From the NCBI GenBank assembly GCA_034440455.1, contig JAWXCB010000066.1, positions 2,807 through 66,806 of the forward strand: a DNA stretch of 64,000 nucleotides, read 5' to 3'. The position numbers and the translations under genes were made by a program. This stretch comes from Chitinophagales bacterium (GTDB lineage: Bacteria > Bacteroidota > Bacteroidia > Chitinophagales > CAIOSU01). Position 1 is the stretch's first letter. The number at the start of each line of letters is the position of its first letter. Positions 5,085 through 57,460 of the stretch are shown piece by piece. Below the pieces are notes generated by a model. That model was not told the DNA's origin. It did no database searches and saw only the letters and a program-made list of their open reading frames with translations.

Positions 5085-5321
5085 ATGAAAAACGAACAGA
5101 AAATTAAGTCGAGCATCATCAACAGGCTGGATAAAATTTCGCAGCGCAAGTTGAAAGATGTGTTGCATTTCATTGAGAAACTGGAAAACAGCAGTTCTGA
5201 CAAGAGCGACATCCTTTCCTTTGCCGGCTCGTGGAAAGAGATGGATGATTCTACTTTCAACGACCTCACGAAGCATCTGCACAAAAGAAGGAAAGCAAAC
5301 ACCACAAGACGCATCCTGTGA
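5085..5321 (+). CDS. putative antitoxin partner of the downstream PIN toxin
   Basis: 78-aa ORF whose stop overlaps the PIN gene start (GTGA at 5318-5321). Size and position fit an antitoxin; no family could be assigned by eye. Confidence 0.55.
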   Translation: MKNEQKIKSSIINRLDKISQRKLKDVLHFIEKLENSSSDKSDILSFAGSWKEMDDSTFNDLTKHLHKRRKANTTRRIL

Positions 5322-5728
5322 ACGAGCGCCTCATTGACACCGATATCCTGTCGTATTATATAAAAGGGAACAGCGCGGTTGTTCAGCGATTCAGCAACTA
5401 CCTGAATCACTTCCCCGCCATTAAAATCAGCATCATCACTTATTATGAAATCAAAAGCGGATTGCAGTTCAAAGGCGTCAAAAAACAACTCAGCGATTTT
5501 GAAAAATTCAGCGGCAAATGTGAAATCATGTCGCTTACAGAGATAAGCGCTGATGTTGCCGCCTTCTGGTATGCGCTGCTAAGAAAAAAAGGAACTCTGG
5601 TGGATGATATTGATTTATTGATTGCCGGAATCGCAATAGAGAACGAGCTAAGGTTAGTTACGAACAATGAAAAACATTTCGCCAATATCAGCGAATTTGA
5701 AATCGAAAACTGGGCTATGCCGCAATAA
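5318..5728 (+). CDS. vapC: PIN-domain ribonuclease toxin (VapC-like)
   Basis: 136 aa. Acidic PIN pattern: LIDTDIL at the N-terminus, DDIDLLIAGIA, and TNNEKHF near the C-terminus. Confidence 0.8.
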   Translation: MNERLIDTDILSYYIKGNSAVVQRFSNYLNHFPAIKISIITYYEIKSGLQFKGVKKQLSDFEKFSGKCEIMSLTEISADVAAFWYALLRKKGTLVDDIDLLIAGIAIENELRLVTNNEKHFANISEFEIENWAMPQ

Positions 5729-9125: not shown

Positions 9126-9958
9126 AGGAACAATTTCAACTTTGTTTACTTGAAGGTTTTGACCGTTGCGGTTCCTCCATGATTGCGCGGGTTCTCTCCT
9201 TGCATCCTGAAGTGAATTTAATTTTCCAGCCGTTCAACAGCACGGAAGTTTCAAAAACACAATGGCAACGATGGCAGGTAAATGAACAACATCCGCTGAC
9301 CGCGCAGTTCATTGAACATCTATTGAAGGGGGAAATAGACCACGATTATATTCAATCGGATTGGTTCAAGAATTACAGTAGTTCGCAACAGGTACAGCCG
9401 AAACTGAATCTGATTAAAGACACGAAATTTCATTTTAAAATTGACTGGCTGCAACACCATTTTCCGGCAGTAAGTGTCTATGGAATCTGGCGGCAACCTG
9501 AAGAAATTCTACATTCACTCGTACGTAATGGTTTTCACAAAACATGGTATGATTATCTAACACCGGAAATGCTGAACTGCGCTGTCGCATCGTATGAAAA
9601 CCTCTCACCGTATGCTCCTCTGCTGGAAAAAAATCTTGAAGATTATGAGGTGATTGCAATTGGCATAGCGCTTCGCACGGAAATTTTGCTTCTATCGGTT
9701 GTTCCGAAAAATTGGCTTGTATATGAAGATGTCATTACCCACCCGAATTTAATTTTGAATCAATTTCTCAGGCGGTTTAACTTGCCCTCGTTTGATTTCA
9801 GCAGTGCAATGCAAGAAGACTTTAATGTTGCCGGAAAGTTTTCAGCCGACAGAGTTTCTTGGAAAGATTTTTTTTCTTCTGCACAGCAACAAAAAATAGC
9901 AGCAATCCTTCAGCCTCTCAACCATCGCCCAATTCCCAAGACATTGATGAATGAATAA
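9122..9958 (+). CDS. sulfotransferase-family protein
   Basis: GFDRCGSSMIARVLSLHPEV fits the 5'-PSB loop, and GIWRQPEEILHSLV fits the 3'-PB motif (RxPxxxxxS). The GTG at 9122 overlaps the upstream stop (GTGA). The ORF track starts at 9098. Confidence 0.6.
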   Translation: MKEQFQLCLLEGFDRCGSSMIARVLSLHPEVNLIFQPFNSTEVSKTQWQRWQVNEQHPLTAQFIEHLLKGEIDHDYIQSDWFKNYSSSQQVQPKLNLIKDTKFHFKIDWLQHHFPAVSVYGIWRQPEEILHSLVRNGFHKTWYDYLTPEMLNCAVASYENLSPYAPLLEKNLEDYEVIAIGIALRTEILLLSVVPKNWLVYEDVITHPNLILNQFLRRFNLPSFDFSSAMQEDFNVAGKFSADRVSWKDFFSSAQQQKIAAILQPLNHRPIPKTLMNE

Positions 9959-11234: not shown

Positions 11235-11255
11235 GGTTAGAAAAATGAAGAACGT

Positions 11256-11286
11256 AAAAAGGGCTGCACATGCAGCCCTTTTTATT
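11256..11286 (+). terminator. rho-independent terminator
   Basis: AAAAAGGGCTGCACATGCAGCCCTTTTTATTTT: a GC-rich palindromic stem followed by a T run. Confidence 0.55.
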
Positions 11287-11325: not shown

Positions 11326-11397
11326 GTCATGGCGGACTTGTTCCGCCATCCCCATGTAAATAATAAAGAGGGGATGCCGGAACAAGTCCGGCATGAC
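11326..11397. repeat. dual-hairpin inverted-repeat element (GTCATGSCGGACTTGTTCCGSCATCCCC family), clean copy
   Basis: GTCATGGCGGACTTGTTCCGCCATCCCC, a 16-nt spacer, then GGGGATGCCGGAACAAGTCCGGCATGAC. Confidence 0.8.
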
Positions 11398-12995: not shown

Positions 12996-13094
12996 AAAAT
13001 GAATTTCATTTTTTTGGGGTTCAAAAGTAGGGTTTTGGGTTGATTTCGGGTGAGGAATAACAACAGGTCGATCTTCCGAGGCAATAAAAAAAGA

Positions 13095-13523
13095 GGCTGC
13101 ATGACTGTAAGCCGGGTTCTGTTTCCCTGATTGCTCAGGGCTTCTATCATTTATCTGGGGCTGTAATCACTTACAGCCTCTATCAGCCAACCCCCTCCGG
13201 CATCCGCTTGCGCGAATTTGAGCGAGCCGCTCTGCCTGCCGAAACAGACCGGAGTATATTTGGCTTTTCAACTTGCAAGGTTTACCCCACCAGTGTGTTA
13301 CCACAACGATGCGTGAGCTTTTACCTCACGTTTTCACCTTTACCCACCGAAGCTTTAGCGAAGGCGGGCTTTACCAGCCTCGCAAAACTTCAACAGGCAG
13401 TTATTCTCTGTGGCACTCTCTGTATTCCGCTTGCGCGAAACCCCTGCCGTTAGCAGGTGCAACGCTCTTTGTTGCCCGGACTTTCCTCCCCGATTGCTCA
13501 AGGCGATAGAACATCATGCAGCC
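13095..13523 (-). ncRNA. rnpB: RNase P RNA (bacterial type A)
   Basis: The minus strand reads GGAGGAAAGTCCGGGC (plus 13474-13489) and ACAGAACCCGGCTTA (plus 13108-13122), the universal CR-I and CR-V motifs. A 10-bp P1 helix pairs GGCUGCAUGA (5' end, 13523-13514) with UCAUGCAGCC (3' end, 13104-13095). There are two GCAA-tetraloop hairpins. The ends are approximate. Confidence 0.85.
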
Positions 13524-22103: not shown

Positions 22104-22406
22104 ATGAAGCTCGAAAAAAATAAGCTGCAATCCTTAAAGGTTTTTTTCTCGGACAAGCCGGTGAAGCGAGCATACTTATTTGGCTCTTTTGCGCGGGGTG
22201 ATGCAAATGAGAGGAGCGATGTAGATATTTTGGTTGAGTTGGACTATTCGCAAAAAATCGGATTGAAATTTCTGAGCATGCAAATCGCATTGGAAGAAAT
22301 GCTTGAAAGGAAAGTGGACTTTGTTACGGATCGCTCGCTTGAGGCTTTTATGAAGCCATTTGTTGACAAAGAAAAAATGCTTCTTTATGAAAGGCAAAGC
22401 GGCTGA
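22104..22406 (+). CDS. MNT-type nucleotidyltransferase (antitoxin of a HEPN/MNT pair)
   Basis: LFGSFARGDANERSDVDILVE, i.e. the GSxxRG...SDxD motif. Confidence 0.8.
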   Translation: MKLEKNKLQSLKVFFSDKPVKRAYLFGSFARGDANERSDVDILVELDYSQKIGLKFLSMQIALEEMLERKVDFVTDRSLEAFMKPFVDKEKMLLYERQSG

Positions 22407-26189: not shown

Positions 26190-26423
26190 ATGCTAAACAT
26201 TCAAAATTATATTGAGTCAGACCCCAAAATCATAATGGGCAAGCCTGTCATTAAGGGAATGAGAATAACGGTTGAGTTGATTTTGGAAAAATTGTCGGAA
26301 GGGGAAACGGTGGAAGATTTATTGGAAGCGCATCCCCGCCTTACGACTGAGGGCATCAATGTCGCGCTTGCTTTTGCGGCTCATAACCTCAGAGCGGATA
26401 ACATCTATCCAATAGCAAGTTGA
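26190..26423 (+). CDS. DUF433-family protein (antitoxin-like)
   Basis: DPKIIMGKPVIKGMRITVELILEKLSEGETVEDLLEAHPRLT matches the DUF433 pattern. Confidence 0.75.
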   Translation: MLNIQNYIESDPKIIMGKPVIKGMRITVELILEKLSEGETVEDLLEAHPRLTTEGINVALAFAAHNLRADNIYPIAS

Positions 26424-26776
26424 TGCTCCAGTTTGTTGCTGATAAAGGTGTTGACGCGCCAATTGTGCATGTCTTGGGAGGTGCGGGGTATAATGTTCTT
26501 TACATCGCAGAAGAAGCCCCAAAGACAGGCGATGATAAAGTTCTTCTCATGGCAAACGACCAGCAACGTATCTTAATCACTCTTGATAAGGATTTCGGTG
26601 AGTTGGTTTATAGGTTGCATCAATCACATACAGGGGTTATGCAGGTGAGATTAGGCGGATTCAAGCCGAAACGTAAAGCTGAGATTGTGTTGGAAGCGGT
26701 TAAAAAGCATGAAGAAAAGTTGATTGATGCTTTCACTGTAATTCATAAAGGAATAATTAAGCTAAGAAACAGGTGA
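26423..26776 (+). CDS. DUF5615-family PIN-like protein (toxin-like partner of DUF433)
   Basis: FVADKGVD...GYNVLYI...DDKVLLMANDQQRILITLDKDFGELV pattern. ATG 26423 shares one base with the upstream TGA. The ORF track starts at TTG 26420. Confidence 0.7.
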   Translation: MLQFVADKGVDAPIVHVLGGAGYNVLYIAEEAPKTGDDKVLLMANDQQRILITLDKDFGELVYRLHQSHTGVMQVRLGGFKPKRKAEIVLEAVKKHEEKLIDAFTVIHKGIIKLRNR

Positions 26777-28030: not shown

Positions 28031-28110
28031 ACGATGCTGCACTTGTTCCGGCATCCTCTGATTTTTAGTTGTAATGGCTTCAGGGGTTTGTGGAACAAGT
28101 CCGCAATGAC
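28031..28110. repeat. dual-hairpin element, degenerate copy
   Basis: ...GATGCTGCACTTGTTCCGGCATCCTC, a spacer, then GGGGTTTGTGGAACAAGTCCGCAATGAC. Confidence 0.6.
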
Positions 28111-28119
28111 AAACAAATC

Positions 28120-29046
28120 CTACGGCTTCATAATCTTTGCATACTTACCGCTGTTCACAGGGTCGCATTTGTAGAGCAACTGCACTGCGTTTGCTTTCTC
28201 ATTTGGTGGCGCAGCGGCAAAAATATTAATCAGCTCTTCTGACTTTGCATTGAAAATAAGCCGGATAAAAGGGGAATTGGGGTATTCCGCTGCAACTTCA
28301 CCAATCTGGCGCAAGCAATTCAACACCACCTGCCTGCCATTGTTCATGTTATCATACATCACATCCATGCCGCTGCGGTGATAGAGATACATGGATTCAC
28401 GAATAGGGCTGAGGCGTGTGTTCAGCAAATTGTCAATTATCCAGTAGCGATTATTCACGTTTTCAAACGGTCGCCAGCCGGGAGCAATATCACTGCTTAA
28501 GTTGCTGGGAATACTATTTACTACTGCTTGCGCTTTTTGATAGTAAGGTGTGCCCGCATTCAGCGAGTAGGTGTCATAATCAAGTCCGATAATGAGATAG
28601 GCATAGTAGGCAAGCATCGCAGTGAGGTTCGAGCGGAAATCATTATCGCTGAACTCCAATTGCTCAAATTCTTTGTATTCAAAAATCCAGTCCTTATCGG
28701 CATAGTTGAAAACTACCGAATTGTAATCGCTGTTAAACACCGGACGCGATGACTGAATGCTCACCTGTGCGCGAAAAATATTTGCGCTCGATTCTTCGGT
28801 AACATTGATAAAGATGCTGCACTCAATTTTTTCTTCCAACTTGAAAACATCACTCGTCCACTTGCGGGTGTTCATGAATTCAAAAATGGCGGTCTCAAGC
28901 GTTTGAAAAACCCTGACATCCGTGGTTTGCAGCTTCTGCGCAATAATCTCCACCGTGCATTTCAATTCCTGAGCGCGAATTGTTGCAGACGAAAATAAAA
29001 ACAGTACAACTGCAAGGAGTTTTAAGGGAAGAAATTTTCGCGTCAA
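28120..29046 (-). CDS. DUF4835-family protein (T9SS-associated, PorD-like)
   Basis: Signal peptide ...LLAVVLFLFSSATIRAQ, then ELKCTVEIIAQKLQTTDVRVFQTLE... The position after coaBC matches the conserved Bacteroidetes synteny. The TTG start at 29046 is preferred because the ORF-track N-terminus (to 29103) translates a stutter repeat. Confidence 0.6.
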   Translation of the reverse strand: MTRKFLPLKLLAVVLFLFSSATIRAQELKCTVEIIAQKLQTTDVRVFQTLETAIFEFMNTRKWTSDVFKLEEKIECSIFINVTEESSANIFRAQVSIQSSRPVFNSDYNSVVFNYADKDWIFEYKEFEQLEFSDNDFRSNLTAMLAYYAYLIIGLDYDTYSLNAGTPYYQKAQAVVNSIPSNLSSDIAPGWRPFENVNNRYWIIDNLLNTRLSPIRESMYLYHRSGMDVMYDNMNNGRQVVLNCLRQIGEVAAEYPNSPFIRLIFNAKSEELINIFAAAPPNEKANAVQLLYKCDPVNSGKYAKIMKP

Positions 29047-29079
29047 CTTCAAACTATAAACTTCAAACTGTAAACTCGC
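29044..29079. repeat. ACTTCAAAC stutter repeat
   Basis: CAACTTCAAACTATAAACTTCAAACTGTAAACTCGC. The same word family occurs at 30314-30401. Confidence 0.55.
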
Positions 29080-29095: not shown

Positions 29096-30313
29096 TTAAG
29101 CATTCATCATATTTATTACTTCGTCAATAATGTCTCTTGCAACATCGGACTTGCCTTTAAGAGAGTAGGAGTGTTCATCTCCTTTTTTGTTGATGACGGT
29201 GATTTTATTGGTATCAAATCCAAACCCTGCGCCTTTGTCGCGTAACGAGTTCAGCACAATCATGTCGAGGTTTTTCTTTTTCAGTTTGGCGCGGGCGTTG
29301 TTCAGTTCATCTTCTGTTTCAAGCGCGAAGCCGACTAAAAACTGTTTCTTGGTTTTCTTCTTTCCTAAGCTTTCCAAAATGTCAGGATTTTTCACCAATT
29401 GGATAAGCAGAGAATCATCAGCCTTTTTGATTTTTTGATTGGATACCGAAACAGGTCTGTAATCCGAAACTGCCCCTGCAAGAATCGCCACGTCTGCTTT
29501 TGGAAATGCCTTCACCGAAGCGTCATACATTTCCTGCGCTGTGGTAACGGGAATAATTTTAATTCCTTTCACTTGTGGGTTGAATGATGTAGGACCTTTC
29601 ACCACCGTAACCTGCGCGCCCAATGCGGCTAAACCTTCGGCAAGCGCAAGCCCCATTTTTCCGGTGGAGTGATTGCTGATAAAACGAACAGGGTCAATTG
29701 GCTCAACGGTGGGACCAGCGGTAATTAATATCTGTTTGCCTACAATTTTTTTATAGGTGTCCTCTCTTTTTTTTTGAACTGCAAAATGCTTCTCAAGCCA
29801 GTCGAAAATTTCTTCCGGCTCTGCCATTCTTCCCTCGCCCACTAAGCCGCTTGCCAACTCACCGGCATTCACGGAGATTACTTCATTTCCGAATCGCTTC
29901 AGCGCATTCAAATTATATTGCGTTGCAGGATGCTTCCACATGTCTAAGTCCATTGCGGGAGCAAGCAGGACTAAACACTTTGCTGACAGATAAGTGGCAG
30001 CGAGCAGGTTATCGCACATCCCTGAAGCCAGCTTGGCAATGGTGTTTGCTGAAGCGGGCGCAATCAGAAAAACATCAGCCCACAAACCAAGCTCTACATG
30101 ACTGTTCCAGGTTTTGTCATCGCGGGTGAAAGAAGTAAGCACCGGGTTTTTTGAAAGCGTGGAGAAGGTAAGCGGGTCAACGAAATCATGAGCCGATTGC
30201 GTCATCACCACCTTCACTTCCGCGCCTGCCTTCACCAGCAACCGCACGAGAAAAGCGCTTTTGTATGCGGCAATGCTGCCACATACGCCTAAGAGTATTT
30301 TCTTTCCTTTCAT
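29096..30313 (-). CDS. coaBC: bifunctional phosphopantothenoylcysteine decarboxylase / phosphopantothenate-cysteine ligase
   Basis: 405 aa. Flavoprotein N-domain (ILLGVCGSIAAYK, PAMD..MW) and CoaB C-domain (ITAGPT.EPIDPVRFISNHSTGKMG). Confidence 0.92.
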   Translation of the reverse strand: MKGKKILLGVCGSIAAYKSAFLVRLLVKAGAEVKVVMTQSAHDFVDPLTFSTLSKNPVLTSFTRDDKTWNSHVELGLWADVFLIAPASANTIAKLASGMCDNLLAATYLSAKCLVLLAPAMDLDMWKHPATQYNLNALKRFGNEVISVNAGELASGLVGEGRMAEPEEIFDWLEKHFAVQKKREDTYKKIVGKQILITAGPTVEPIDPVRFISNHSTGKMGLALAEGLAALGAQVTVVKGPTSFNPQVKGIKIIPVTTAQEMYDASVKAFPKADVAILAGAVSDYRPVSVSNQKIKKADDSLLIQLVKNPDILESLGKKKTKKQFLVGFALETEDELNNARAKLKKKNLDMIVLNSLRDKGAGFGFDTNKITVINKKGDEHSYSLKGKSDVARDIIDEVINMMNA

Positions 30314-30401
30314 TGCTCAGTTTGAAGTTTGAAGTCTCAAGTTTGAAGTGAGTTCAAAGTTGCTCTAAAACTTCAAACCTCAAACTTTAACCTCTAAACT
30401 T
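30314..30401. repeat. inverted stutter repeat (GTTTGAAGT / ACTTCAAAC words)
   Basis: AGTTTGAAGTTTGAAGTCTCAAGTTTGAAGTGAG faces CTAAAACTTCAAACCTCAAACTTTAACCTCTAAACT, which gives a long imperfect hairpin between rpoZ and coaBC. Confidence 0.6.
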
Positions 30402-40802: not shown

Positions 40803-41192
40803 TTAATTTTTTTCTTCCGGTTCCTGCGCAAACTTCAGCAGCATCCACGTTTCAAACGCCTTATAAATAATAAAGAGGAGAAAAAATGGTACCACAAACA
40901 TTTTGCTTTCGGGTTTGAATCCAAATAAGAAAACAACAATGAACATGAGGCTTAAAAAAAACTTTAACGCCAGCGTACCCATATAGATATTGAAGAAGAA
41001 GGGCTTTTTGATGCTGCGCGAATTATAATAGCCGGAGACCAATGTGATTGCAAAGAAGAACACCAATGCTGCCCACGTAAACAACCGGAACGGCTGGAAA
41101 AACTCAAATGCAGGCGCACTCAAAATCGAAAGCGCGATGATGAGGACGAACGTGAGCTTCAGGATTTTCTTTACAAAGTTGCGATACTTCAT
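40803..41192 (-). CDS. hypothetical 4-TM membrane protein
   Basis: 129 aa from MKYRNFVKK. The 32 upstream codons of the ORF-track call are translation of a repeat element. Confidence 0.4.
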   Translation of the reverse strand: MKYRNFVKKILKLTFVLIIALSILSAPAFEFFQPFRLFTWAALVFFFAITLVSGYYNSRSIKKPFFFNIYMGTLALKFFLSLMFIVVFLFGFKPESKMFVVPFFLLFIIYKAFETWMLLKFAQEPEEKN

Positions 41193-41210
41193 TGCTGCGT
41201 TTTTCCTTGA

Positions 41211-41286
41211 GTCATGCCGGACTTGTTGCGGCATCCCCACCAAAGGCGTCAATTTTAAGGAGATGGCGGAATAAATTCGCCATGAC
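41211..41286. repeat. dual-hairpin element
   Basis: GTCATGCCGGACTTGTTGCGGCATCCCC, a 20-nt spacer, then GGAGATGGCGGAATAAATTCGCCATGAC. Confidence 0.75.
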
Positions 41287-41292
41287 AAAAAC

Positions 41293-41517
41293 TTACGACT
41301 TCTTCAAAAGGTCTTTCACCGTCAAAACTAATGAAGCGATTACAAAAAAAAGAGAAAGGGTGATAGTAAACACGGGCTTTTCAGTGTTGAATTTTCTATC
41401 AAGCCACTGCCCAAGAAATACCCCGAGTAGAATAGCACCGAGAAACTGGAATGCCATTCCGGAGTATTTGAGGTAGTCGTTAGACGGCTTCTTTTTTGAA
41501 GGCGGAAGATTGCTCAT
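41293..41517 (-). CDS. AtpZ/AtpI-family small membrane protein
   Basis: 74 aa. KKKPSNDYLKYSGMAFQFLGAILLGVFLG pattern and two TM helices. Confidence 0.6.
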   Translation of the reverse strand: MSNLPPSKKKPSNDYLKYSGMAFQFLGAILLGVFLGQWLDRKFNTEKPVFTITLSLFFVIASLVLTVKDLLKKS

Positions 41518-41887
41518 TTTCCATTTGGTAAACGCCCATGCTGCACGTGCCGTTGAAGCGCGCCCCCGCTTCCACTACGAGTTTGGTGGCGATAATATCG
41601 CCCTCAACAAATGCGGTGGCTTTGAGGAAAAGCATGTCTTGCACCGTTACGCGACCTTTCACTGTTCCTGAGATGTCGGCATTCTGGCAACGCAACTCGC
41701 CTTCCAGCTTGCCCTTTTGCCCGATTACCACTTTGGCGCTTGAAATTACATTGCCCTGCACAGAGCCGTCAAGGCGGATGTCGTTGCTGGATTTAATTTC
41801 TCCTTCAATCACCGTTCCTTCGCAAAACTGGTTGGTGGCGTTGGGGTTCTGGGGTTTTGGAGTTTCTTTGGCGTTGAACATGCCCAT
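41480..41887 (-). CDS. bactofilin (polymer-forming cytoskeletal protein)
   Basis: 135 aa. Repetitive beta-helix pattern: G.V.G.I.S...V.I...G.V.G.L.. repeated. Confidence 0.8.
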   Translation of the reverse strand: MGMFNAKETPKPQNPNATNQFCEGTVIEGEIKSSNDIRLDGSVQGNVISSAKVVIGQKGKLEGELRCQNADISGTVKGRVTVQDMLFLKATAFVEGDIIATKLVVEAGARFNGTCSMGVYQMENEQSSAFKKEAV

Positions 41888-48844: not shown

Positions 48845-51800
48845 CTAAAAAAGTTTCTGTTGAGAGTTATCAGCAATCTCTTTTTCATTGAATTGCTTTC
48901 CGAATTTCATTTTCCAGTAGGTATCGAGAATTTTCTTTTGAAGTTTTGATTCACTGGAAATTTCACGCGCAAGTTTTTCAAGTTGCTTGGCAAATTTCAA
49001 AGTGTCTTTTGCTTCATAATTCCCTTCGATAAGCAGTTGTTTAAGTTGCTCAACATATACGCTGAACTCAACTTTATTTCGTTGAGCTTTTACTCCTTTC
49101 ATGCTTTGCGCTTTGAGCAGTCGCGCGTCAATGAGTTTATAGGTAGCGCGATAAAGCTCAAGTAAAGTTTCATCGCGTTCTTTTTTGTTTTTATATCCAA
49201 GAGCTTCAAGTATAACGCTGTCTAATTTTATCCTTTGGGGATTTACTGTTTTCAGCGAATCAAGCGCGCCCAGTTCTTCTTTGTAGTTTTTTGTTTCTCC
49301 AAGTTCAACTTCTAAATGGTCAATGTTAATGTCAGGAACAAGAAAAGCAGCTAACTCATAAGTTTCAATTTTTCCTGCGCCATCTCCTAAGTTGCTGCGC
49401 ATAATCAGTTGTTGGATGAGCCAACTGATCGTTGAGTTCATGTAAAGCCAAATTGAATTTGTGTGTTTACGGGGATAGATGTTGTGAAAATTGTTGTTGG
49501 TGAAAACTTTGCCCTTGAATGTTCTGCCAAAATCGTTAATCATGTAATTGAAGGACATTGCAGGCAAGTCATGTTCGCCTAAATCATACCATAGTTTTCT
49601 TGAACTGCAAGTTGGACGGTGATGAATGTTTTGGCGTTCCCCATGCTTTATGTATTTGAATAAAAGCGGAAAGTCATTACGTAATGATTTTTTTGCTTCA
49701 TGCGTCAGCACGAATTTATTTTGAACCGCCTTTTGGCTTATCAGGTAAGCGCTAACGTCTTTCGGGCTGGTAAGAATTGGTTGCAAGCATTCTTCTTCAA
49801 TCAGCCACAACTCGCTGTAGCCGTTAAGCATCAACTTCAGTTTTGCATCCTTCAACTGTTTTGTAGAAGTGAACGCGTCCGTATTATTCATTGCTGCTTG
49901 TAGCAGAGCGCTGTTAGCAGTAGCTGTTTTGTCTTCTAAAATAAAAAACTCATTGCATCCGGTCTTTATCCCAAATTTTACATCAGCTAATTGTTTGAGT
50001 GGAACAAATTTGTTCGCGCCTTTTTCAATGATGTCGAAATAAACTTTTGGAGCTTTCAGAAATTGCCCCCACTTGGTAAAATTGGAGAGCGTTTCTTGTT
50101 TAACGCAATTGATGCGAAAAAAATCATTAGTCGTGTTTTCAGTTACATTCTCTAAAAATTCCTGCAACTGCGTTACTCCTTTATGGTTTTTAATTGCGTT
50201 GGCAACGGGCGCTGTGAACCAAATAAACTTTACGGTGCTGTTGTTTCTAACTTCTTCAATTCGCTGCTTCCGCAAAATAACAATCGTAGTGTTGACGGAA
50301 GCGGAAGGGAAAAAGCGTTCTACTTCACTATCCATAATGGCTACAATTTCAAAATTGCGCATCAGGTAGCGTTGCATATCAATTCCGTAATCTGTATCCA
50401 GCCAAGAGTTTTGACAGATGTAAGCAAGATAGCCGCCATCTTTTAAGAATGCGCTTGCATGGTAAAAGAAGTAAGCAAAGATGGATGTGCGCTGCGATGG
50501 TTCAAAACCACACTCAGATTTAATCAGTGCTTGAATTTTTGTTTTGCCAACTGTGCCGTGCATTGTCCCGATGTCCTCTTGTCGGGTATAGGGCGGGTTC
50601 CCTATCACTGCATCGAACTTTGGCAATGTTTTATTTTCCTTTTCACCTTGTTGATTGTGCAGTTCAATTTTTGTGTGCTCAGAAATCGCAAAAAAATCTT
50701 TGTTTGAAATGCGTGGGTAACTTGGCTTGCGCGTGTTGCGTATTGCGAGGTTAAGCATACTGAGGTATGCCGGGTAATTTGAAAGGTCGTTGCCGTAAAT
50801 CTCATTTAGCAAAATATCGTGCTTTGCTCCTTTCTCCTCTTTTGCGCACAACATTTTTTTGCGCTCGTAGGCGCGAACTAAAAAAGTGCCTGAGCCGCAA
50901 GATGGGTCGAAAACTTTATCGTTGCTTTTGCGAATAGCAAAGGCATTGATTAAGTCAATTACGTGTGGCGGTGTAAAGTATTGTCCGAGTTTGTGCCGCT
51001 CATCTTCACGGATGAGTTCTTCAAAAATTCGTCCGATGATGTCAAAGGGAATGTTGCTGAAATTGTAATGACCGCCTGTGTCAAGAATTTCTTTAACTAA
51101 ATCAAGAACAGCATCGCTGACAAAAGGGATTTTGAAAATAATATCGGAGCGTTCACCGATTAGGAGCTCAAAGTTTCCCGTTACCTCTTTAAACTCGTCA
51201 AAGTATTTCCAAATGAGTTCTTCCAAGCTGTCGGGGGTATTGACAGATTCGGGAACTTGCATAGGATGAAGCGCGTGCCATGTCTGATTGTCAACATACG
51301 TTTTATAAAAAATGAGTTTTGAAATCAGCATCAGCACACCAATGTGCGTGAGGTTTTCTATTTCCTCAAAGGTGGTGGGCTTATTCCATAACTGACTTTG
51401 CGCGTATCTCGTAATATCTTTTTCAAACGATTTGTTATGCTTGTATTTGTCCCAAACCTTGTTGCTGATTGGATGCGAATAAACTTCAATCAGCTTTCGA
51501 GTCTTGAAAATGAAAAGTTCATCAAGGTTGCTGAACTTAATCGGCTTACGCTCTAAAATTTCAATAGCGCGGTCAAGATAAAATTCCGCAATGCTGTGGA
51601 GTTTTGCGAGAACTTCTTTATTTGGCGCGTAGCTCTGGCTTAGTCGCGCAATGTCAGTAAGGGTAAAAAAACCTTCATTGACGCTCACTTTTTCATAGAG
51701 CTTGTCTTTGTCGAAAAATGCGCAAGCAAGAAAATTGCAGTTGCCAAAATATTTTATGTCAATGCGCTGCGCTCTTTCTACTTCCCGCATTAGAACGCTG

Positions 51801-52009
51801 CTGTCAAAAACACTTTTGCCGTCTTTTGCTGTCGGGTCTTTCAACTCGATAAAGAAAAGCGGAGTGCCGTTTTTATTTTTGAGCGTGATATCTGCGCGAT
51901 TCTCTTCTAAAGCAGGGTAAGGCAAAATCCGACCTTCCAATCCTCTTGCCTTAATGAGTTCTGTGAAGATTGTATTGAGCGTTCCCTGTAATTGGCGTTC
52001 TATCTGCAT
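48845..52009 (-). CDS. Type IIG restriction-modification enzyme (fused PD-ExK nuclease, N6-adenine methyltransferase and TaqI_C-like specificity domain)
   Basis: 1054 aa. N-terminal ADITL...FFIELKDP (D...ExK), FDPSCGSGTFLV (SAM motif I), VIGNPPYTRQED (motif IV NPPY), LADVKFGIKTGCNEFF (TaqI_C-type TRD). Confidence 0.8.
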   Translation of the reverse strand: MQIERQLQGTLNTIFTELIKARGLEGRILPYPALEENRADITLKNKNGTPLFFIELKDPTAKDGKSVFDSSVLMREVERAQRIDIKYFGNCNFLACAFFDKDKLYEKVSVNEGFFTLTDIARLSQSYAPNKEVLAKLHSIAEFYLDRAIEILERKPIKFSNLDELFIFKTRKLIEVYSHPISNKVWDKYKHNKSFEKDITRYAQSQLWNKPTTFEEIENLTHIGVLMLISKLIFYKTYVDNQTWHALHPMQVPESVNTPDSLEELIWKYFDEFKEVTGNFELLIGERSDIIFKIPFVSDAVLDLVKEILDTGGHYNFSNIPFDIIGRIFEELIREDERHKLGQYFTPPHVIDLINAFAIRKSNDKVFDPSCGSGTFLVRAYERKKMLCAKEEKGAKHDILLNEIYGNDLSNYPAYLSMLNLAIRNTRKPSYPRISNKDFFAISEHTKIELHNQQGEKENKTLPKFDAVIGNPPYTRQEDIGTMHGTVGKTKIQALIKSECGFEPSQRTSIFAYFFYHASAFLKDGGYLAYICQNSWLDTDYGIDMQRYLMRNFEIVAIMDSEVERFFPSASVNTTIVILRKQRIEEVRNNSTVKFIWFTAPVANAIKNHKGVTQLQEFLENVTENTTNDFFRINCVKQETLSNFTKWGQFLKAPKVYFDIIEKGANKFVPLKQLADVKFGIKTGCNEFFILEDKTATANSALLQAAMNNTDAFTSTKQLKDAKLKLMLNGYSELWLIEEECLQPILTSPKDVSAYLISQKAVQNKFVLTHEAKKSLRNDFPLLFKYIKHGERQNIHHRPTCSSRKLWYDLGEHDLPAMSFNYMINDFGRTFKGKVFTNNNFHNIYPRKHTNSIWLYMNSTISWLIQQLIMRSNLGDGAGKIETYELAAFLVPDINIDHLEVELGETKNYKEELGALDSLKTVNPQRIKLDSVILEALGYKNKKERDETLLELYRATYKLIDARLLKAQSMKGVKAQRNKVEFSVYVEQLKQLLIEGNYEAKDTLKFAKQLEKLAREISSESKLQKKILDTYWKMKFGKQFNEKEIADNSQQKLF

Positions 52010-52126: not shown

Positions 52127-54562
52127 TCACGGGTCAACATCCACGTCCACTCGCACTGATTTGTATTCTACTTTCAACTTCAGCTTTTCAATGCTTTGCA
52201 CGAGTGCATGTTTATTCGCATTGAGTGCTGCCGTCTTTGGAATTTTCAAAAGGATGTCCTGTAAGTAAAGATTCTTCATCATACTGATGGGCGGAGTAAC
52301 CGGTCCAAGAATTGTTCCCTGAAAATTTTCAGCGAGCAGCCGCGCGAAATCCCGTGCGGCATTCTGCACAGTTTTCCGCTCTTTGTGTTTCAGCACAAGA
52401 TGAATCAGCCGCGTGTAAGGCGGATAGTCAAACTCTTTCCTGAAATTCATTTCGCGGTAAAAGAAATTCTCAAAATCATTTTTCAGGATAAAATCCAACA
52501 CAGGATGTTCGGCATCAAAGGTCTGAATAAGCACTTTGCTCGCATGTCCCTTTCTGCCTGCGCGTCCGCTCACCTGTTGTATCAATTGAAAGCCGCGCTC
52601 ATTCGCTCGAAAGTCGGGGAAGCCAAGCAGTTGGTCAGCGCTCAGGATGCCGACTAAACTTACCGTGTCGAAATCCAATCCCTTTGTCACCATCTGTGTG
52701 CCCACGAGAATATCAAACTTCCTGTTTTCAAAATCAGCGATGATTTGCTCGTAAGCCTCGCGTGAACGCGCAGCATCCAAATCGAGGCGCATCACGCCCG
52801 CATCCGGAAAAAAGATTTTGATTTCTTCTTCAATCTTTTCCGTGCCGAAGCCGCGAATGCGAATGTCGGTTGATTCGCACTCCACGCATTTATTCACTAC
52901 TTCCGTTGCGTAACCGCAATAGTGGCAGCGCAATGTGTTGAGATGTTTGTGATAAGAAAGGCTCACATCACAGTTCACGCATTTCGGAATCCAGCCGCAA
53001 TGATAACAACTCAGGTATGGGGCAAACCCGCGCCTGTTTTGAAACAGAATCACCTGCTCTTTTTTTACAAGCGTTGCTTTGATTTCTTCGAGCAGCACAG
53101 AAGAAAAGTCAGATTGCATTTTATGCTTCTTCGTTTCCTCGCGCAGGTTCACGATTTCCATGCGCGGCAGTTGCACACCTCCAAAGCGCTCGGTGAGTTT
53201 CACGAAACCATACTTGCCATGCCGCGCATTTTCATAACTCTCCAACGAAGGAGTTCCTGTGCCGAGCAAAACTTTCGCGCCTGTATCATGCGCGAGATAA
53301 ATCGCAGCATCACGCGCCTGGTAGCGTGGCGCAGGGTCGAATTGCTTGTAAGAGGGATCATGCTCTTCATCAACGATTACCAAACCAAGCTCGGAGAAAG
53401 GCAGGAACAACGCGGAGCGCGCGCCAATCACGGCTTTATATTCTTTGCGCAACAGTTTATTCCAAATTTCCACGCGCTCGTTTGCCGTGAACTTAGAGTG
53501 ATAAATGCCAATCGTTTCTCCAAACACTTCGCGCAGCCGCCTGACAAGTTGCGTGGTCAGCGCAATTTCAGGAAGCAGGTAGAGCGCTTGTTTCCCATTG
53601 GCGAGCGCCTCTTTTATCAACTCCATGTAGAGTTGCGTTTTCCCCGATGATGTCACGCCATGCAGGAGAACAACATCCTTTTTCTCAAACCATGTTTTTA
53701 TTTCGTGTAAAGATTTCTGCTGCACTTCGCTTAAAATGTATTCCTTCTTTTCAGAAACCACAACATCCCACGTAAGCCTGTCTACTTCTTTTTTCTGCTC
53801 ATGCAGAATACCTTTTTGTATCAACTGTTTAAGAGCGGCAGATGAAATACCTGATGTTTCAATGAGTTTCGACTTTTTGATTTCTGCTGCGCCCGCCTGG
53901 AGAAAAGCCATCAACGCTTCTTGCTGCCGTTTGGCTTTGTTTAATTCATCTAATGTTTTATTCAGTAGTTCTTCATCGCTGTATTCTGCGGCAAGCTCGA
54001 TATAGTTCTCTGTTTTCGGCTTGTATTTCTCCACGAGTTTTTCAAACGCATACACCGCATTTTTTTCAATCAGTGATTTAATCAGCGCGTGAACTGTTTT
54101 CCTCCGCGTCAGTTTTTCAAGCTGTTGAACGCTCAGCGACTTTTTAATGCGCAATGCTTCCATCACTAAAAACTGCGCATTGTCCAGCTTCGATTCGTCT
54201 TCATCCCATTCGGGATGCAGCGCGATATTGGTTTCGCTGTCGAGCTTCAAGCCTTGCGGCATGGCGGCATTCATCACTTCGCCCAGCGTACACAGGTAGT
54301 AGGATGCAATCCATTTCCAGAACTCAATGTTATGCGGATGCACCACCGGCTCGTCATCAAGCACTTCAAGAATTGGTTTTGCTTTGTGCAGTTCCGGTTG
54401 GTTGTTGTGCAGCCTGCCGACCAACGCGGTATAAATCTTTCGTGCGCCAAACTGCACCACCACGCGCTTGCCGATAGCAATGTGTTCGCTGAATTCCTGC
54501 GGAACCAAGTAAGTGAACATTCCCGGAACGGGAAGCGGAAGAATAACGTCAGCGAAGAGCAT
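52127..54562 (-). CDS. priA: primosomal protein N' (replication restart helicase PriA)
   Basis: 811 aa. Walker A GVTSSGKT, VDEEH box, and the Cys-rich zinc region CYHCG..CVNCD...CHYCG. Confidence 0.92.
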   Translation of the reverse strand: MLFADVILPLPVPGMFTYLVPQEFSEHIAIGKRVVVQFGARKIYTALVGRLHNNQPELHKAKPILEVLDDEPVVHPHNIEFWKWIASYYLCTLGEVMNAAMPQGLKLDSETNIALHPEWDEDESKLDNAQFLVMEALRIKKSLSVQQLEKLTRRKTVHALIKSLIEKNAVYAFEKLVEKYKPKTENYIELAAEYSDEELLNKTLDELNKAKRQQEALMAFLQAGAAEIKKSKLIETSGISSAALKQLIQKGILHEQKKEVDRLTWDVVVSEKKEYILSEVQQKSLHEIKTWFEKKDVVLLHGVTSSGKTQLYMELIKEALANGKQALYLLPEIALTTQLVRRLREVFGETIGIYHSKFTANERVEIWNKLLRKEYKAVIGARSALFLPFSELGLVIVDEEHDPSYKQFDPAPRYQARDAAIYLAHDTGAKVLLGTGTPSLESYENARHGKYGFVKLTERFGGVQLPRMEIVNLREETKKHKMQSDFSSVLLEEIKATLVKKEQVILFQNRRGFAPYLSCYHCGWIPKCVNCDVSLSYHKHLNTLRCHYCGYATEVVNKCVECESTDIRIRGFGTEKIEEEIKIFFPDAGVMRLDLDAARSREAYEQIIADFENRKFDILVGTQMVTKGLDFDTVSLVGILSADQLLGFPDFRANERGFQLIQQVSGRAGRKGHASKVLIQTFDAEHPVLDFILKNDFENFFYREMNFRKEFDYPPYTRLIHLVLKHKERKTVQNAARDFARLLAENFQGTILGPVTPPISMMKNLYLQDILLKIPKTAALNANKHALVQSIEKLKLKVEYKSVRVDVDVDP

Positions 54563-54605: not shown

Positions 54606-54676
54606 GTCCTGCCGGACTTGTTCCGGCATCCGCAAATTATTCTGATGAGGGGATGGCGGAACGAGTCCGCCATGAC
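54606..54676. repeat. dual-hairpin element
   Basis: GTCCTGCCGGACTTGTTCCGGCATCCGC, a 15-nt spacer, then GGGGATGGCGGAACGAGTCCGCCATGAC. Confidence 0.75.
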
Positions 54677-54682
54677 AACGAA

Positions 54683-55598
54683 TCACTTAAACAAAAAATC
54701 AAGCGCGCCTTCGGGCTTGTAAATGCCACCCTCCGAATAGTTTCCCAACACGGGATTTTTCGGATAGAGCGGGTCTTGGTTCAGCAGCTTTTTCATGGAG
54801 GCATACACTTCGGGAAGTTCAGTATTAAATTGTTGCGGCAGTTCAAAAAAACATTCCGCGCATACGGCAAGAAACTCATCGCGGTTTTGCACGAGTCGGT
54901 TTTTTAGAAATTCAATCTTTTTGCTTTTGAGTTTCAGCATCTCCACAGTAGCAAGTTTTTCGATGATTTCATTGTTGTCATAAAAAGTGAAATCAACATG
55001 GTGTTGCAGCGCATATACTTTCAGCGTGCATGAGTTCGTGCAAGCCGAGGTTCACGCCATCATCAGGAAAGAGATAACCCTTTTCAAAGTTGTTCCACGA
55101 AAGATGAATGCTGCCATATTCGGAAACATGCCCTCTGAATTTTACTTTGTAATGCTTGTAGAGATAGGATTCGGGATACACATAAATCTGATGAAATTCT
55201 TTCAGCCGGAAATAGCTCAACCCGAACGTGAGTTGAATTGCAGAGGCGCTGATGAGAATCTTCATGCGCTCCGTAAGAATTAACCCGTTTTTAGGAATAA
55301 ATTTTTTGCTTTGCATGAACATTAGCAGGCGCAACTCAAACCTGCGCCTGTTCGCATTATCCAATTTGTTGTAATAAGGAAAATACTGCACCAGTGTGCG
55401 GATAATTTCAGGAGGATGGTGATAGGAGAAAAAATTATAGCGCCAGTAAACCAGTTTATCTCTCACCGGAGAGATGATGAAGTAAGCGATACCGATGAAG
55501 GGAAGGGAAAGGAAAGTATTCCCATGAATATCAGCAGAAAGACAAACCCGAATAGGAGACCGAGGATTTCTTCCAAAGTAGTGCAGTGTTTTCCTCAA
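54683..55598 (-). pseudogene. M90 (MtfA-like) zinc peptidase split by a frameshift
   Basis: ORF 54993-55598 carries the family N-terminal pattern up to NLGLHELMHA (HExxH). ORF 54683-54946 and its upstream extension carry YALQHHVDF...DEFLAVCAECFFELPQQF...LYPK, the family C-terminus. The frames meet at GCTGAAAGTATATGCG, around 54995-55010. Confidence 0.6.
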
Positions 55599-57217: not shown

Positions 57218-57460
57218 ATGATTCTCGAATACATGCAAGCTGCAATGCGCAAAGCCCGCTATGAGTATTTGCCTGATGATAAGTTGTATTCTGGTGAAAT
57301 CCCCGGATTCAAAGGCGTGTATGCTTCATCAAAACATCTTGAAGATTGCCGCAAAGAATTACATGCAGTGCTGGAAGACTGGCTGCTTATCAGCCTGCAA
57401 AGAAACCTTCCCATTCCGGTAGTAAATAAGATTTCTCTTAAAATCAAGAACGTGGCATAG
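57218..57460 (+). CDS. hicB: HicB-family antitoxin
   Basis: 80 aa. The YSGEIPGFKGVYASSKHLEDCRKELHAVLEDWL pattern is typical of short HicB proteins. Its stop abuts the next ATG. Confidence 0.7.
   Translation: MILEYMQAAMRKARYEYLPDDKLYSGEIPGFKGVYASSKHLEDCRKELHAVLEDWLLISLQRNLPIPVVNKISLKIKNVA

Follow-up and report, generated by a model that had tools for sequence, protein, structure and literature searches.

Head-to-head CGTC-2-type REP dimers in a Chitinophagales genome segment and their probable link to Ssn recognition hairpins

The 64,000-nt stretch of DNA analysed here, referred to as the window, comes from a Chitinophagales bacterium (contig JAWXCB010000066.1, positions 2,807 to 66,806) and contained four copies of a dual-hairpin inverted repeat, the cleanest of which is located at 11326–11397. 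These elements are probably head-to-head dimers of CGTC/TGTC-tagged repetitive extragenic palindromes (REPs), of the CGTC-2 type and within the NTS/Ssn-related motif (SRM) superfamily, and their arms would be the hairpins that Ssn nucleases recognize in single-stranded DNA (ssDNA). The anatomy of the family, the covariation within its hairpins, the identical arm at ssn-like genes elsewhere, and the gain and loss of the element in an orthologous spacer were directly observed.

The element was composed of a 28-nt module, GTCATG[G/C]CGGACTTGTTCCG[C/G]CATCCCC, followed by a spacer of 15–24 nt and the reverse complement of the module. The spacers were 16, 24, 20, and 15 nt long in copies 1, 4, 2, and 3, respectively, taken in order of coordinate. 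The arm motif of the window was also written as TGTCATGSCGGACTTGTTCCGSCATCCCC. A fuzzy search of the window with the 28-nt module (≤8 substitutions) gave eight arms, which formed four inverted pairs with no singletons, and the 21-nt core ATGSCGGACTTGTTCCGSCAT matched seven times when ≤3 mismatches were allowed, where dinucleotide shuffles predicted 0.01. Each arm was built around an 8-bp stem, ATGSCGGA/TCCGSCAT, closed by the loop CTTGT. The stem was perfect in three arms and carried one to three changes in the remaining arms. In every clean arm, GTC preceded the stem and a C came straight after it. The tag was TGTC in six of the eight arms, AGTC in one, and degenerate in one. The tail was CCC (variants CCG, CTC, and CCT) and was followed by C; it was thus C-rich and without the A of the consensus CCA. 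Every element contained one arm with a GCCGG stem (C-type) and one with a GGCGG stem (G-type), and the right end of all four was (C/A)ATGAC, followed by AA. The copies and their arms are as follows.

11326–11397, minus strand: copy 1, the cleanest copy and a complete head-to-head dimer, with the order C-type arm, spacer, G-type arm on the minus strand
11326–11353, plus strand: G-type arm of copy 1, GTCATGGCGGACTTGTTCCGCCATCCCC; tag TGTC, perfect 8-bp hairpin, 0 substitutions
11370–11397, minus strand: C-type arm of copy 1, GTCATGCCGGACTTGTTCCGGCATCCCC; tag TGTC, perfect 8-bp hairpin
28031–28110, plus strand: copy 4, a degenerate dimer whose arms have 6 and 4 substitutions
28031–28058, plus strand: C-type arm of copy 4, decayed, ACGATGCTGCACTTGTTCCGGCATCCTC
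28083–28110, minus strand: G-type arm of copy 4, decayed, GTCATTGCGGACTTGTTCCACAAACCCC
41211–41286, plus strand: copy 2, a dimer with one stem mismatch per arm
41211–41238, plus strand: C-type arm of copy 2, GTCATGCCGGACTTGTTGCGGCATCCCC; tag AGTC, one stem mismatch
41259–41286, minus strand: G-type arm of copy 2, GTCATGGCGAATTTATTCCGCCATCTCC; tag TGTC, one stem mismatch, loop now TTTAT
54606–54676, plus strand: copy 3, a dimer with the first stem pair lost in one arm
54606–54633, plus strand: C-type arm of copy 3, GTCCTGCCGGACTTGTTCCGGCATCCGC; tag TGTC, starts GTCC, first stem pair lost
54649–54676, minus strand: G-type arm of copy 3, GTCATGGCGGACTCGTTCCGCCATCCCC; tag TGTC, perfect 8-bp hairpin, loop CTCGT

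All four loci had been listed at these coordinates in an earlier, sequence-only reading of the window. The architecture described there, a module, a short spacer, and the inverted module, was recovered in each copy, although the right end was not always CATGAC. The description of each module as an 8-bp hairpin held for the two perfect hairpins of copy 1 and was too strict for copies 2, 3, and 4, which were imperfect. The pairing of one GGCGG-type with one GCCGG-type arm, which had been stated for the clean elements, extended to the degenerate copy 4.

The CGTC-tagged REPs, which are known from five phyla including Bacteroidetes, carry the tag CGTC, often replaced by TGTC or CCTC, ahead of a stem of 8–9 bp that starts with A-T and T-A (Di Nocera, De Gregorio & Rocco 2013, BMC Genomics 14:522; PMC3733652). 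The loop is 4–5 nt and the 3-nt tail is near CCA; the CGTC-2 type combines a stem of 8 bp with a loop of 5 nt (PMC3733652). Most of these REPs occur as tags-outward (HH) dimers, and heterodimers dominate in CGTC-2 and CGTC-3 (PMC3733652). With all CGTC-2 features present save for the CCC tail, the window elements were filed as CGTC-2-type REP dimers, and by sequence they appear to be a new example of a described cross-phylum family. The sequence-only reading had considered a match to a described REP family with a known transposase. A described REP family was indeed found (PMC3733652), but the enzyme linked with it is a nuclease, not a transposase.

The conservation of the small hairpin was examined in arms that were picked by their unpaired anchors alone (the GTCA tag, a loop that differed from CTTGT by at most one change, and TCC), and arms identical to the search queries were discarded before counting, which avoids circularity. 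The stems were complementary at all or all-but-one positions in 92 of the 94 arms so picked, with more than 35 stem sequences. Among 34 distinct 26-nt arms, 95.6% of the cells were paired, compared with 21–57% when the 3′ partner was slid, and both sides changed in six of the eight stem pairs. The observed covariation score was reached by 0 of 500 shuffles. At the variable G/C position singled out by the sequence-only reading, C-G was found in 30 sequences, G-C in two, and U-G in one. In a count made with a metagenome scan, the pair was C…G in 56, G…C in 2, and C…A in 2 cases, and G…G or C…C in none; the two C…A cases were one locus present in two assemblies. This family-wide covariation is therefore strong evidence that the small hairpin is the conserved unit, short of formal proof, as related sequences inflate the counts.

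Within the window itself, the G/C swap was weaker evidence. Once copy 1 was reverse-complemented, all four copies read C-type and then G-type from 5′ to 3′, and the aligned copies retained a trace of common spacer sequence. The single polarity indicates one heterodimer inherited four times rather than four independent compensations, so that the swap counts as one compensated base-pair difference. The earlier proposal that the small stem-loop is the selected unit thus stood on the covariation of the family more than on the swap from which it had been drawn. Furthermore, the two mismatches noted for arm-to-arm pairing did not stop it, nor did they favour the small hairpins at equilibrium. The long arm-to-arm hairpin of copy 1 was the minimum-energy fold, at –50.7 kcal/mol as RNA and –32.4 kcal/mol as DNA, and was far more stable than the two local hairpins at –25.9 and –17.8 kcal/mol, respectively. 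A four-way junction of outer stem, hairpin 1, inner stem, and hairpin 2 (–33.7 kcal/mol as RNA and –18.0 kcal/mol as DNA) was also far worse energetically than the long hairpin and was set aside as a kinetic possibility only.

The Ssn proteins are single-domain GIY-YIG nucleases (cd10448) whose genes are flanked by hairpins of the NTS or SRM type (Chenal et al. 2025, Nat Commun 16:2388; PMC11893778), a study devoted to these motifs and the SsnA nucleases. SsnA binds the hairpin as ssDNA only and on one strand, cuts a few nucleotides upstream of the tag, and has zero activity on double-stranded DNA or RNA (PMC11893778). Repeats are found near 71% of the ssn homologues, with hundreds of copies per genome, and the repeat-gene-repeat layout has been likened to an insertion sequence or a domesticated system of REP-associated tyrosine transposases (RAYTs) (PMC11893778).

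The same layout was present in fetched loci, where genes of ~100 aa with a GIY-YIG domain (PF01541, E = 2.5e-13) were enclosed by the arms of a dimer. In three Sphingomonas loci (L117, L038, and L183), the 26-nt C-type arm of the window lay 20–25 nt upstream of the PF01541 gene, and an inverted arm lay past its stop codon. The arm in question is that of copy 1, GTCATGCCGGACTTGTTCCGGCATCCCC, of which 26 nt were identical to arms of Sphingomonas and other phyla. Fifteen ssn-like loci were fetched by protein similarity alone, from Alpha-, Beta-, and Gammaproteobacteria, Cyanobacteria, and Bacteroidota; eight of them were inside a dimer and three were between two dimers, at a background density of 0.47 tagged hairpins per kb. 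Within Bacteroidota, the ssn-like gene of a Chitinophagaceae metagenome-assembled genome (MAG) (L204) was enclosed by TGTCATGCC…GGCATC arms, and those of a Cyclobacteriaceae member (L207) and a Spirosoma (L196) had other GTCAT-tagged arms alongside. A Saprospiraceae homologue (L202) had zero arms. Since a GIY-YIG gene between such arms has already been published (PMC11893778), the arrangement was not taken as a new discovery, and the repeat-nuclease pairing described here is a confirmation. Two small GIY-YIG open reading frames (ORFs) of Bacteroidota, at 1820–2077 in L171 and ~136–423 in L085, were set aside because they were near a hairpin dimer yet not enclosed by its arms; they belonged to a more distant subfamily with a different habit, between tRNA genes. 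A separate arrangement of the same hairpin was seen at ~9800–10500 of L167 (Ga0256839_1002295), in which three tandem units of ~260 nt, each beginning TTTGCCGGACTTGTTCCGGCATCCCC, adjoined a GIY-YIG gene fragment (9290–9472, E = 2.4e-13 with a purpose-built Ssn profile).

The identity of the gene between the arms also bears on mobilization by a transposase. Like REPINs, the window elements consist of two REP hairpins in inverted order around a short spacer, are intergenic, and have a high copy number, and they could in principle be strict REPINs mobilized in trans by a single-copy RAYT, an IS200/IS605-type Y1 HUH transposase, encoded elsewhere. According to the literature, RAYTs likewise recognize ssDNA hairpins with an unpaired tetranucleotide. 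That tetranucleotide is GTAG, while the tag found here was (T/C)GTC, and the gene found between such arms was a GIY-YIG nuclease. A transposase domain was present in none of the ~60 window genes that were checked or covered by precomputed matches. In the published survey, no CGTC-flanked tyrosine transposase gene was found in any CGTC-positive species, one Bacteroidetes genome included, and the CGTC repeats "apparently lack a dedicated transposase" (PMC3733652). A strict REPIN system is therefore very improbable.

The arm was distributed widely. When one genome per species was scanned with the query TGNCGGACTTGTTCCGNCA, at least 119 stretches were obtained, mostly from Sphingomonas and Hyphomicrobiales among the matches listed. 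Other carriers listed were Ectothiorhodospiraceae and MAGs of gammaproteobacterial, actinobacterial, Fibrobacter, and Dehalococcoidia affiliation. The arm GTCATGCCGGACTTGTTCCGGCATCC was unchanged in more than 100 genomes of other phyla and occurred in tags-outward dimers, as in the window. True matches extended past the searched core into the GTCA tag, the TCC(A) tail, and tags-outward pairs, and the partner arm was nearly always another perfect hairpin, such as TGCCGGA/TCCGGCA with CCCCGGA/TCCGGGG. A few matches were coding-sequence coincidences, for example in a conserved gene of Bordetella and Achromobacter. The metagenome scan contributed 56 further stretches, and the contigs of the window itself were not among them.

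All four copies in the window were intergenic, and three of the four began 1–31 nt from a stop codon. Copy 1 was located 27 nt ahead of the ctaA start and was preceded by 35 nt by a bidirectional terminator-like hairpin (11255–11284). Copy 4 lay between the convergent ilvA (stop 28029) and DUF4835 (stop 28120) genes. The neighbours of copy 2 were a bactofilin gene (41480–41887, minus strand) and an unassigned 133-aa ORF (40803–41204, minus strand), and copy 3 lay between two minus-strand genes, priA (start at 54562) and a peptidase M90 gene (stop at 54683). The placement at gene ends that had been noted from the sequence was therefore right for ctaA, ilvA/DUF4835, and priA/M90, but in the tests run here the neighbours of copy 2 did not come out as the "4-TM gene" and "atpZ" named there. 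The spurious ORF peptide reported with it was also correct: MPEQVRHD is one frame of the inverted arm, as read from the sequence. The M90 gene by copy 3 (54683–55598, minus strand) was itself split into two ORFs, of which 54993–55598 matched the N-terminal and 54683–54946 the C-terminal part of PF06167; the split reflects a frameshifted pseudogene or else an error in the assembly.

The position near stop codons, together with a very strong RNA fold of the whole element (z = –11 for copy 1), would suit a role mainly as RNA in 3′ or intercistronic untranslated regions, through mRNA 3′ protection, read-through attenuation, or small RNAs, as with some E. coli REPs; such functions have been discussed for REPs generally (PMC3733652). 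The details of the elements did not agree with it. Terminator-like scores were obtained for none of the four elements and none had a T-run, so an intrinsic terminator was rejected, and a separate canonical terminator was already present ahead of copy 1. The C-to-G polarity relative to the adjoining, possibly co-transcribed genes was judged to be mixed: copy 1 ran antisense to ctaA, as did copies 2 and 3 to the minus-strand genes beside them. The Rfam search suggested by the sequence-only reading, run with gathering and E-value thresholds, placed no family at the elements. The best sub-threshold match, AaHKsRNA41 (60.7 bits against a gathering value of 97), rested on the generic long hairpin and was rejected, and the rest was miRNA-hairpin noise. 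In some promoter-like matches the terminal ATGACA served as the –35 box; these were set aside, since Bacteroidota are not known to follow that consensus.

Moreover, the identical arm stood beside unrelated genes in many phyla, and an ssDNA nuclease that does not bind RNA (PMC11893778) accounts for the conserved unpaired tag and tail and for the fixed orientation of the arms. A main role as RNA is therefore unlikely, and an RNA role may exist as a side effect but received no positive support. Of the two forms suggested for the small stem-loops, RNA was likewise not supported, as they had neither an Rfam family nor terminator-like features and the nuclease of the related Neisseria repeat spares RNA (PMC11893778). 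The hairpin was most likely selected as ssDNA.

The orthologous ctaA spacers indicated turnover of the element. It was absent from the spacers whose adjoining ctaA was 90% and 78% identical, and the right arm alone was present at 79% identity, a pattern that would fit gain and loss. Two independent Logan assemblies of this organism (L005 and L006) began exactly at 11370, where the right arm of copy 1 meets the spacer. Such breaks at the arm edge are expected for de Bruijn assemblies when an arm is present in high copy number, and suggest that the arm is repeated often in the genome.

Small inverted-repeat units whose presence varies among orthologous spacers could also be ordinary miniature inverted-repeat transposable elements (MITEs), namely internally deleted DDE insertion sequences moved via their terminal inverted repeats. 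Each arm was a covarying hairpin, which plain terminal inverted repeats do not need, and no target-site duplication was found. The domains of the window genes included no insertion sequence or transposase, and the longer relatives encoded a 100-aa nuclease and not a DDE transposase. Of all the explanations weighed, an origin as MITEs has the faintest likelihood. The absence of the element from the closest orthologous spacer also speaks against immobile palindromes to which a host regulatory or architectural protein binds, of the operator-like or IHF/gyrase type. Such sites would be palindromic and intergenic, as these elements are, and E. coli bacterial interspersed mosaic elements (BIMEs) bind IHF and gyrase (background summarized in PMC3733652). 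The flanking genes were nonetheless unrelated to each other (haem A synthesis, isoleucine synthesis, cytoskeleton, and replication restart), and the identical arm recurred across phyla. Binding sites of this kind are hardly probable.

On the preferred reading, that of REP dimers with Ssn recognition arms, each arm would be an oriented ssDNA recognition module: the GTC tag stays unpaired, the 8-bp stem is closed by the loop CTTGT, and the first base after the stem is C. When the DNA becomes single-stranded in replication, transformation, or repair, each arm would fold locally, and a small single-domain GIY-YIG Ssn nuclease would bind the folded arm and nick that strand outside the element, within a few nucleotides on the upstream side of the tag. 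This ssDNA-only binding and cleavage is carried over from the literature and may apply to these arms by analogy. The short dimers would be non-coding, non-autonomous relatives of arm-ssn-arm units and may build up in intergenic spacers as REPINs do around RAYT genes. A cognate Ssn would be present now, or would once have been present, in this Chitinophagales genome, and Ssn may drive the copying of the repeats.

Several observations weigh against this reading. No ssn homologue was found with tblastn and a purpose-built hidden Markov model in the 64-kb window, the same-species contigs, or the fetched Antarctic mat contigs, and the sole GIY-YIG domain in the window was that of UvrC. The window arms of both types failed the published SRM string, HGTCWYN(0-2)YYVSBRHN(0-5)WNVSBRGN(0-2)RNCYNB (PMC11893778), because the third stem position is G where a pyrimidine is required. 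The same string matched the Sphingomonas CCCCGGA arm, NTS, and the Shinella arm, and it missed the TGCCGGA arm that flanks ssn-like genes; it also missed GTCATGCCGGACTTGTTCCGGCATCC, although GTCATGCCGGACTTGTTCCGGCATCC directly flanks ssn-like genes in L117 and L183. The string is therefore narrower than the family. The CCC tail of the window departs from the CGTC-2 consensus CCA. Neither a target-site duplication nor a clean empty site was definable in the orthologous ctaA spacers, in which the insertion boundaries were undefined because the spacers were too diverged. In Neisseria, the demonstrated effect of Ssn is the modulation of natural transformation (PMC11893778), and Ssn is not known to copy these repeats. 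Finally, the counts from the genome and metagenome scans are lower bounds.

The heterodimeric state of the elements was a property of the whole family. Heterodimers made up 87 of the 92 distinct tags-outward dimers counted in fetched loci, and the commonest difference between their arms was four stem positions, which corresponds to two compensated pairs. The heterodimer preference "has no obvious explanation" in the original catalogue, which mentioned protection from SbcCD-type cleavage of long palindromes as a possible reason (PMC3733652). Two different, internally compensated stems would weaken a perfect long palindrome, and this may be the reason for the heterodimers. The compensated differences could let each arm fold alone as an Ssn substrate while the locus is never a perfect long palindrome, and, if the heterodimer is such a design, the C-type/G-type pair would be the minimal, one-base-pair version of the rule. 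Alternatively, the identical 26-nt arm in Chitinophagales and Alphaproteobacteria could reflect a recent inter-phylum transfer of an arm-ssn-arm unit, after which orphan repeats were possibly left in a Chitinophagales genome without the nuclease. That the heterodimer is a selected design, or that such a transfer took place, is a tentative proposal and rather doubtful.

Other features of the window were noted as well. A second, unrelated dual-hairpin inverted repeat was located between convergent genes at 2043–2170, with the arms TTGCCGTTGGCTTTAGCCAACGGAAT … ATTCCGTTGGCTGAAGCCAACGGCAA, each an 8-bp hairpin, and an inner inverted repeat GGCTTTAGCC/GGCTAAAGCC within its 74-nt spacer. The window contained it once; of the fetched loci, only the same-species contigs L001 and L002 had it too. 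Clusters of ACTTCAAACT-like decamers, in direct and inverted orientation, were located at 29032–29076 and 30319–30400, on either side of a coaBC-like gene (29096–30313). Among Rfam families, only RNase P RNA of bacterial class A (13092–13522, minus strand, 235.5 bits) reached its threshold in the window. The gene at 48845–52009 (minus strand) was a fused type IIG/IIL-like restriction-modification gene with N6_Mtase, Eco57I, and MmeI-type methylase domains. Small toxin-antitoxin-like genes (PIN, MNT/HepT, DUF5615, and UPF0150) were scattered at 5318–5728, 22104–22406, 26420–26776, and 57218–57460, and gliding and type IX secretion system genes were also present. These last, with the class A RNase P RNA and the DUF4835 gene, agree with a Chitinophagales host, a MAG of Antarctic microbial-mat metagenomes.

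The superfamily was catalogued in 2013 and its nuclease link was published in 2025, and the additions made here are one Chitinophagales lineage and the GGCGG stem variant; as a finding this matters little. In practical terms, short-read assemblies break off where such repeats begin or end, and the repeats make spurious ORFs (…MPEQVRHD…); annotators should therefore mask them. The mismatch between the SRM string and the arm type of the window is a new but small detail. A census made with the string will undercount the subfamily, since an arm found directly beside ssn-like genes escapes it. The heterodimer preference, called unexplained since 2013, was very strong in the fetched loci, and the cognate Ssn enzymes make it testable.

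When compared with known systems, the window elements were closest in form to the CGTC-2 REPs, with which they shared the TGTC tag, the 8-bp stem that starts with A-T and T-A, the 5-nt loop, and a short C-rich tail. The tags-outward heterodimers (four of four in the window), the intergenic position near stop codons, and the occurrence in Bacteroidetes were also in common. They differed, apart from the tail sequence, in the AGTC tag of one arm and in spacers of 15–24 nt, which are at the short end of the reported 20–100 nt. By the text of the paper, neither a Chitinophagales MAG host from Antarctic mats nor the GGCGG stem variant is in the catalogue of PMC3733652. The Neisseria dRS3 and the Rickettsia RPE-4 and RPE-6 belong to the same CGTC superfamily (CGTC-1 and CGTC-4, per PMC3733652), but have other stems, with 4-nt loops or 9-bp stems, and the RPEs are often inside genes.

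The window elements differed from the NTS/SRM system in the absence of an ssn gene from the window and in the one stem position at which the SRM string failed, and Bacteroidota are unmentioned in the text of PMC11893778. The oriented hairpin with GTC upstream and C directly after the palindrome, which are the cleavage and binding determinants, was shared with that system, as was the arm-gene-arm layout, which in Sphingomonas (L117, L183, and L038) contains the C-type arm of the window. The REPIN-RAYT system (Bertels & Rainey 2011) has a GTAG tag and a Y1 HUH transposase, neither of which was seen here among the window genes and arms; it resembles the present family in its unit of two inverted REP hairpins with a spacer and in the single linked gene for an ssDNA-acting enzyme flanked by the repeats. 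The unequal arms within each pair, finally, have a counterpart in the Y and Z REPs of the E. coli BIMEs.

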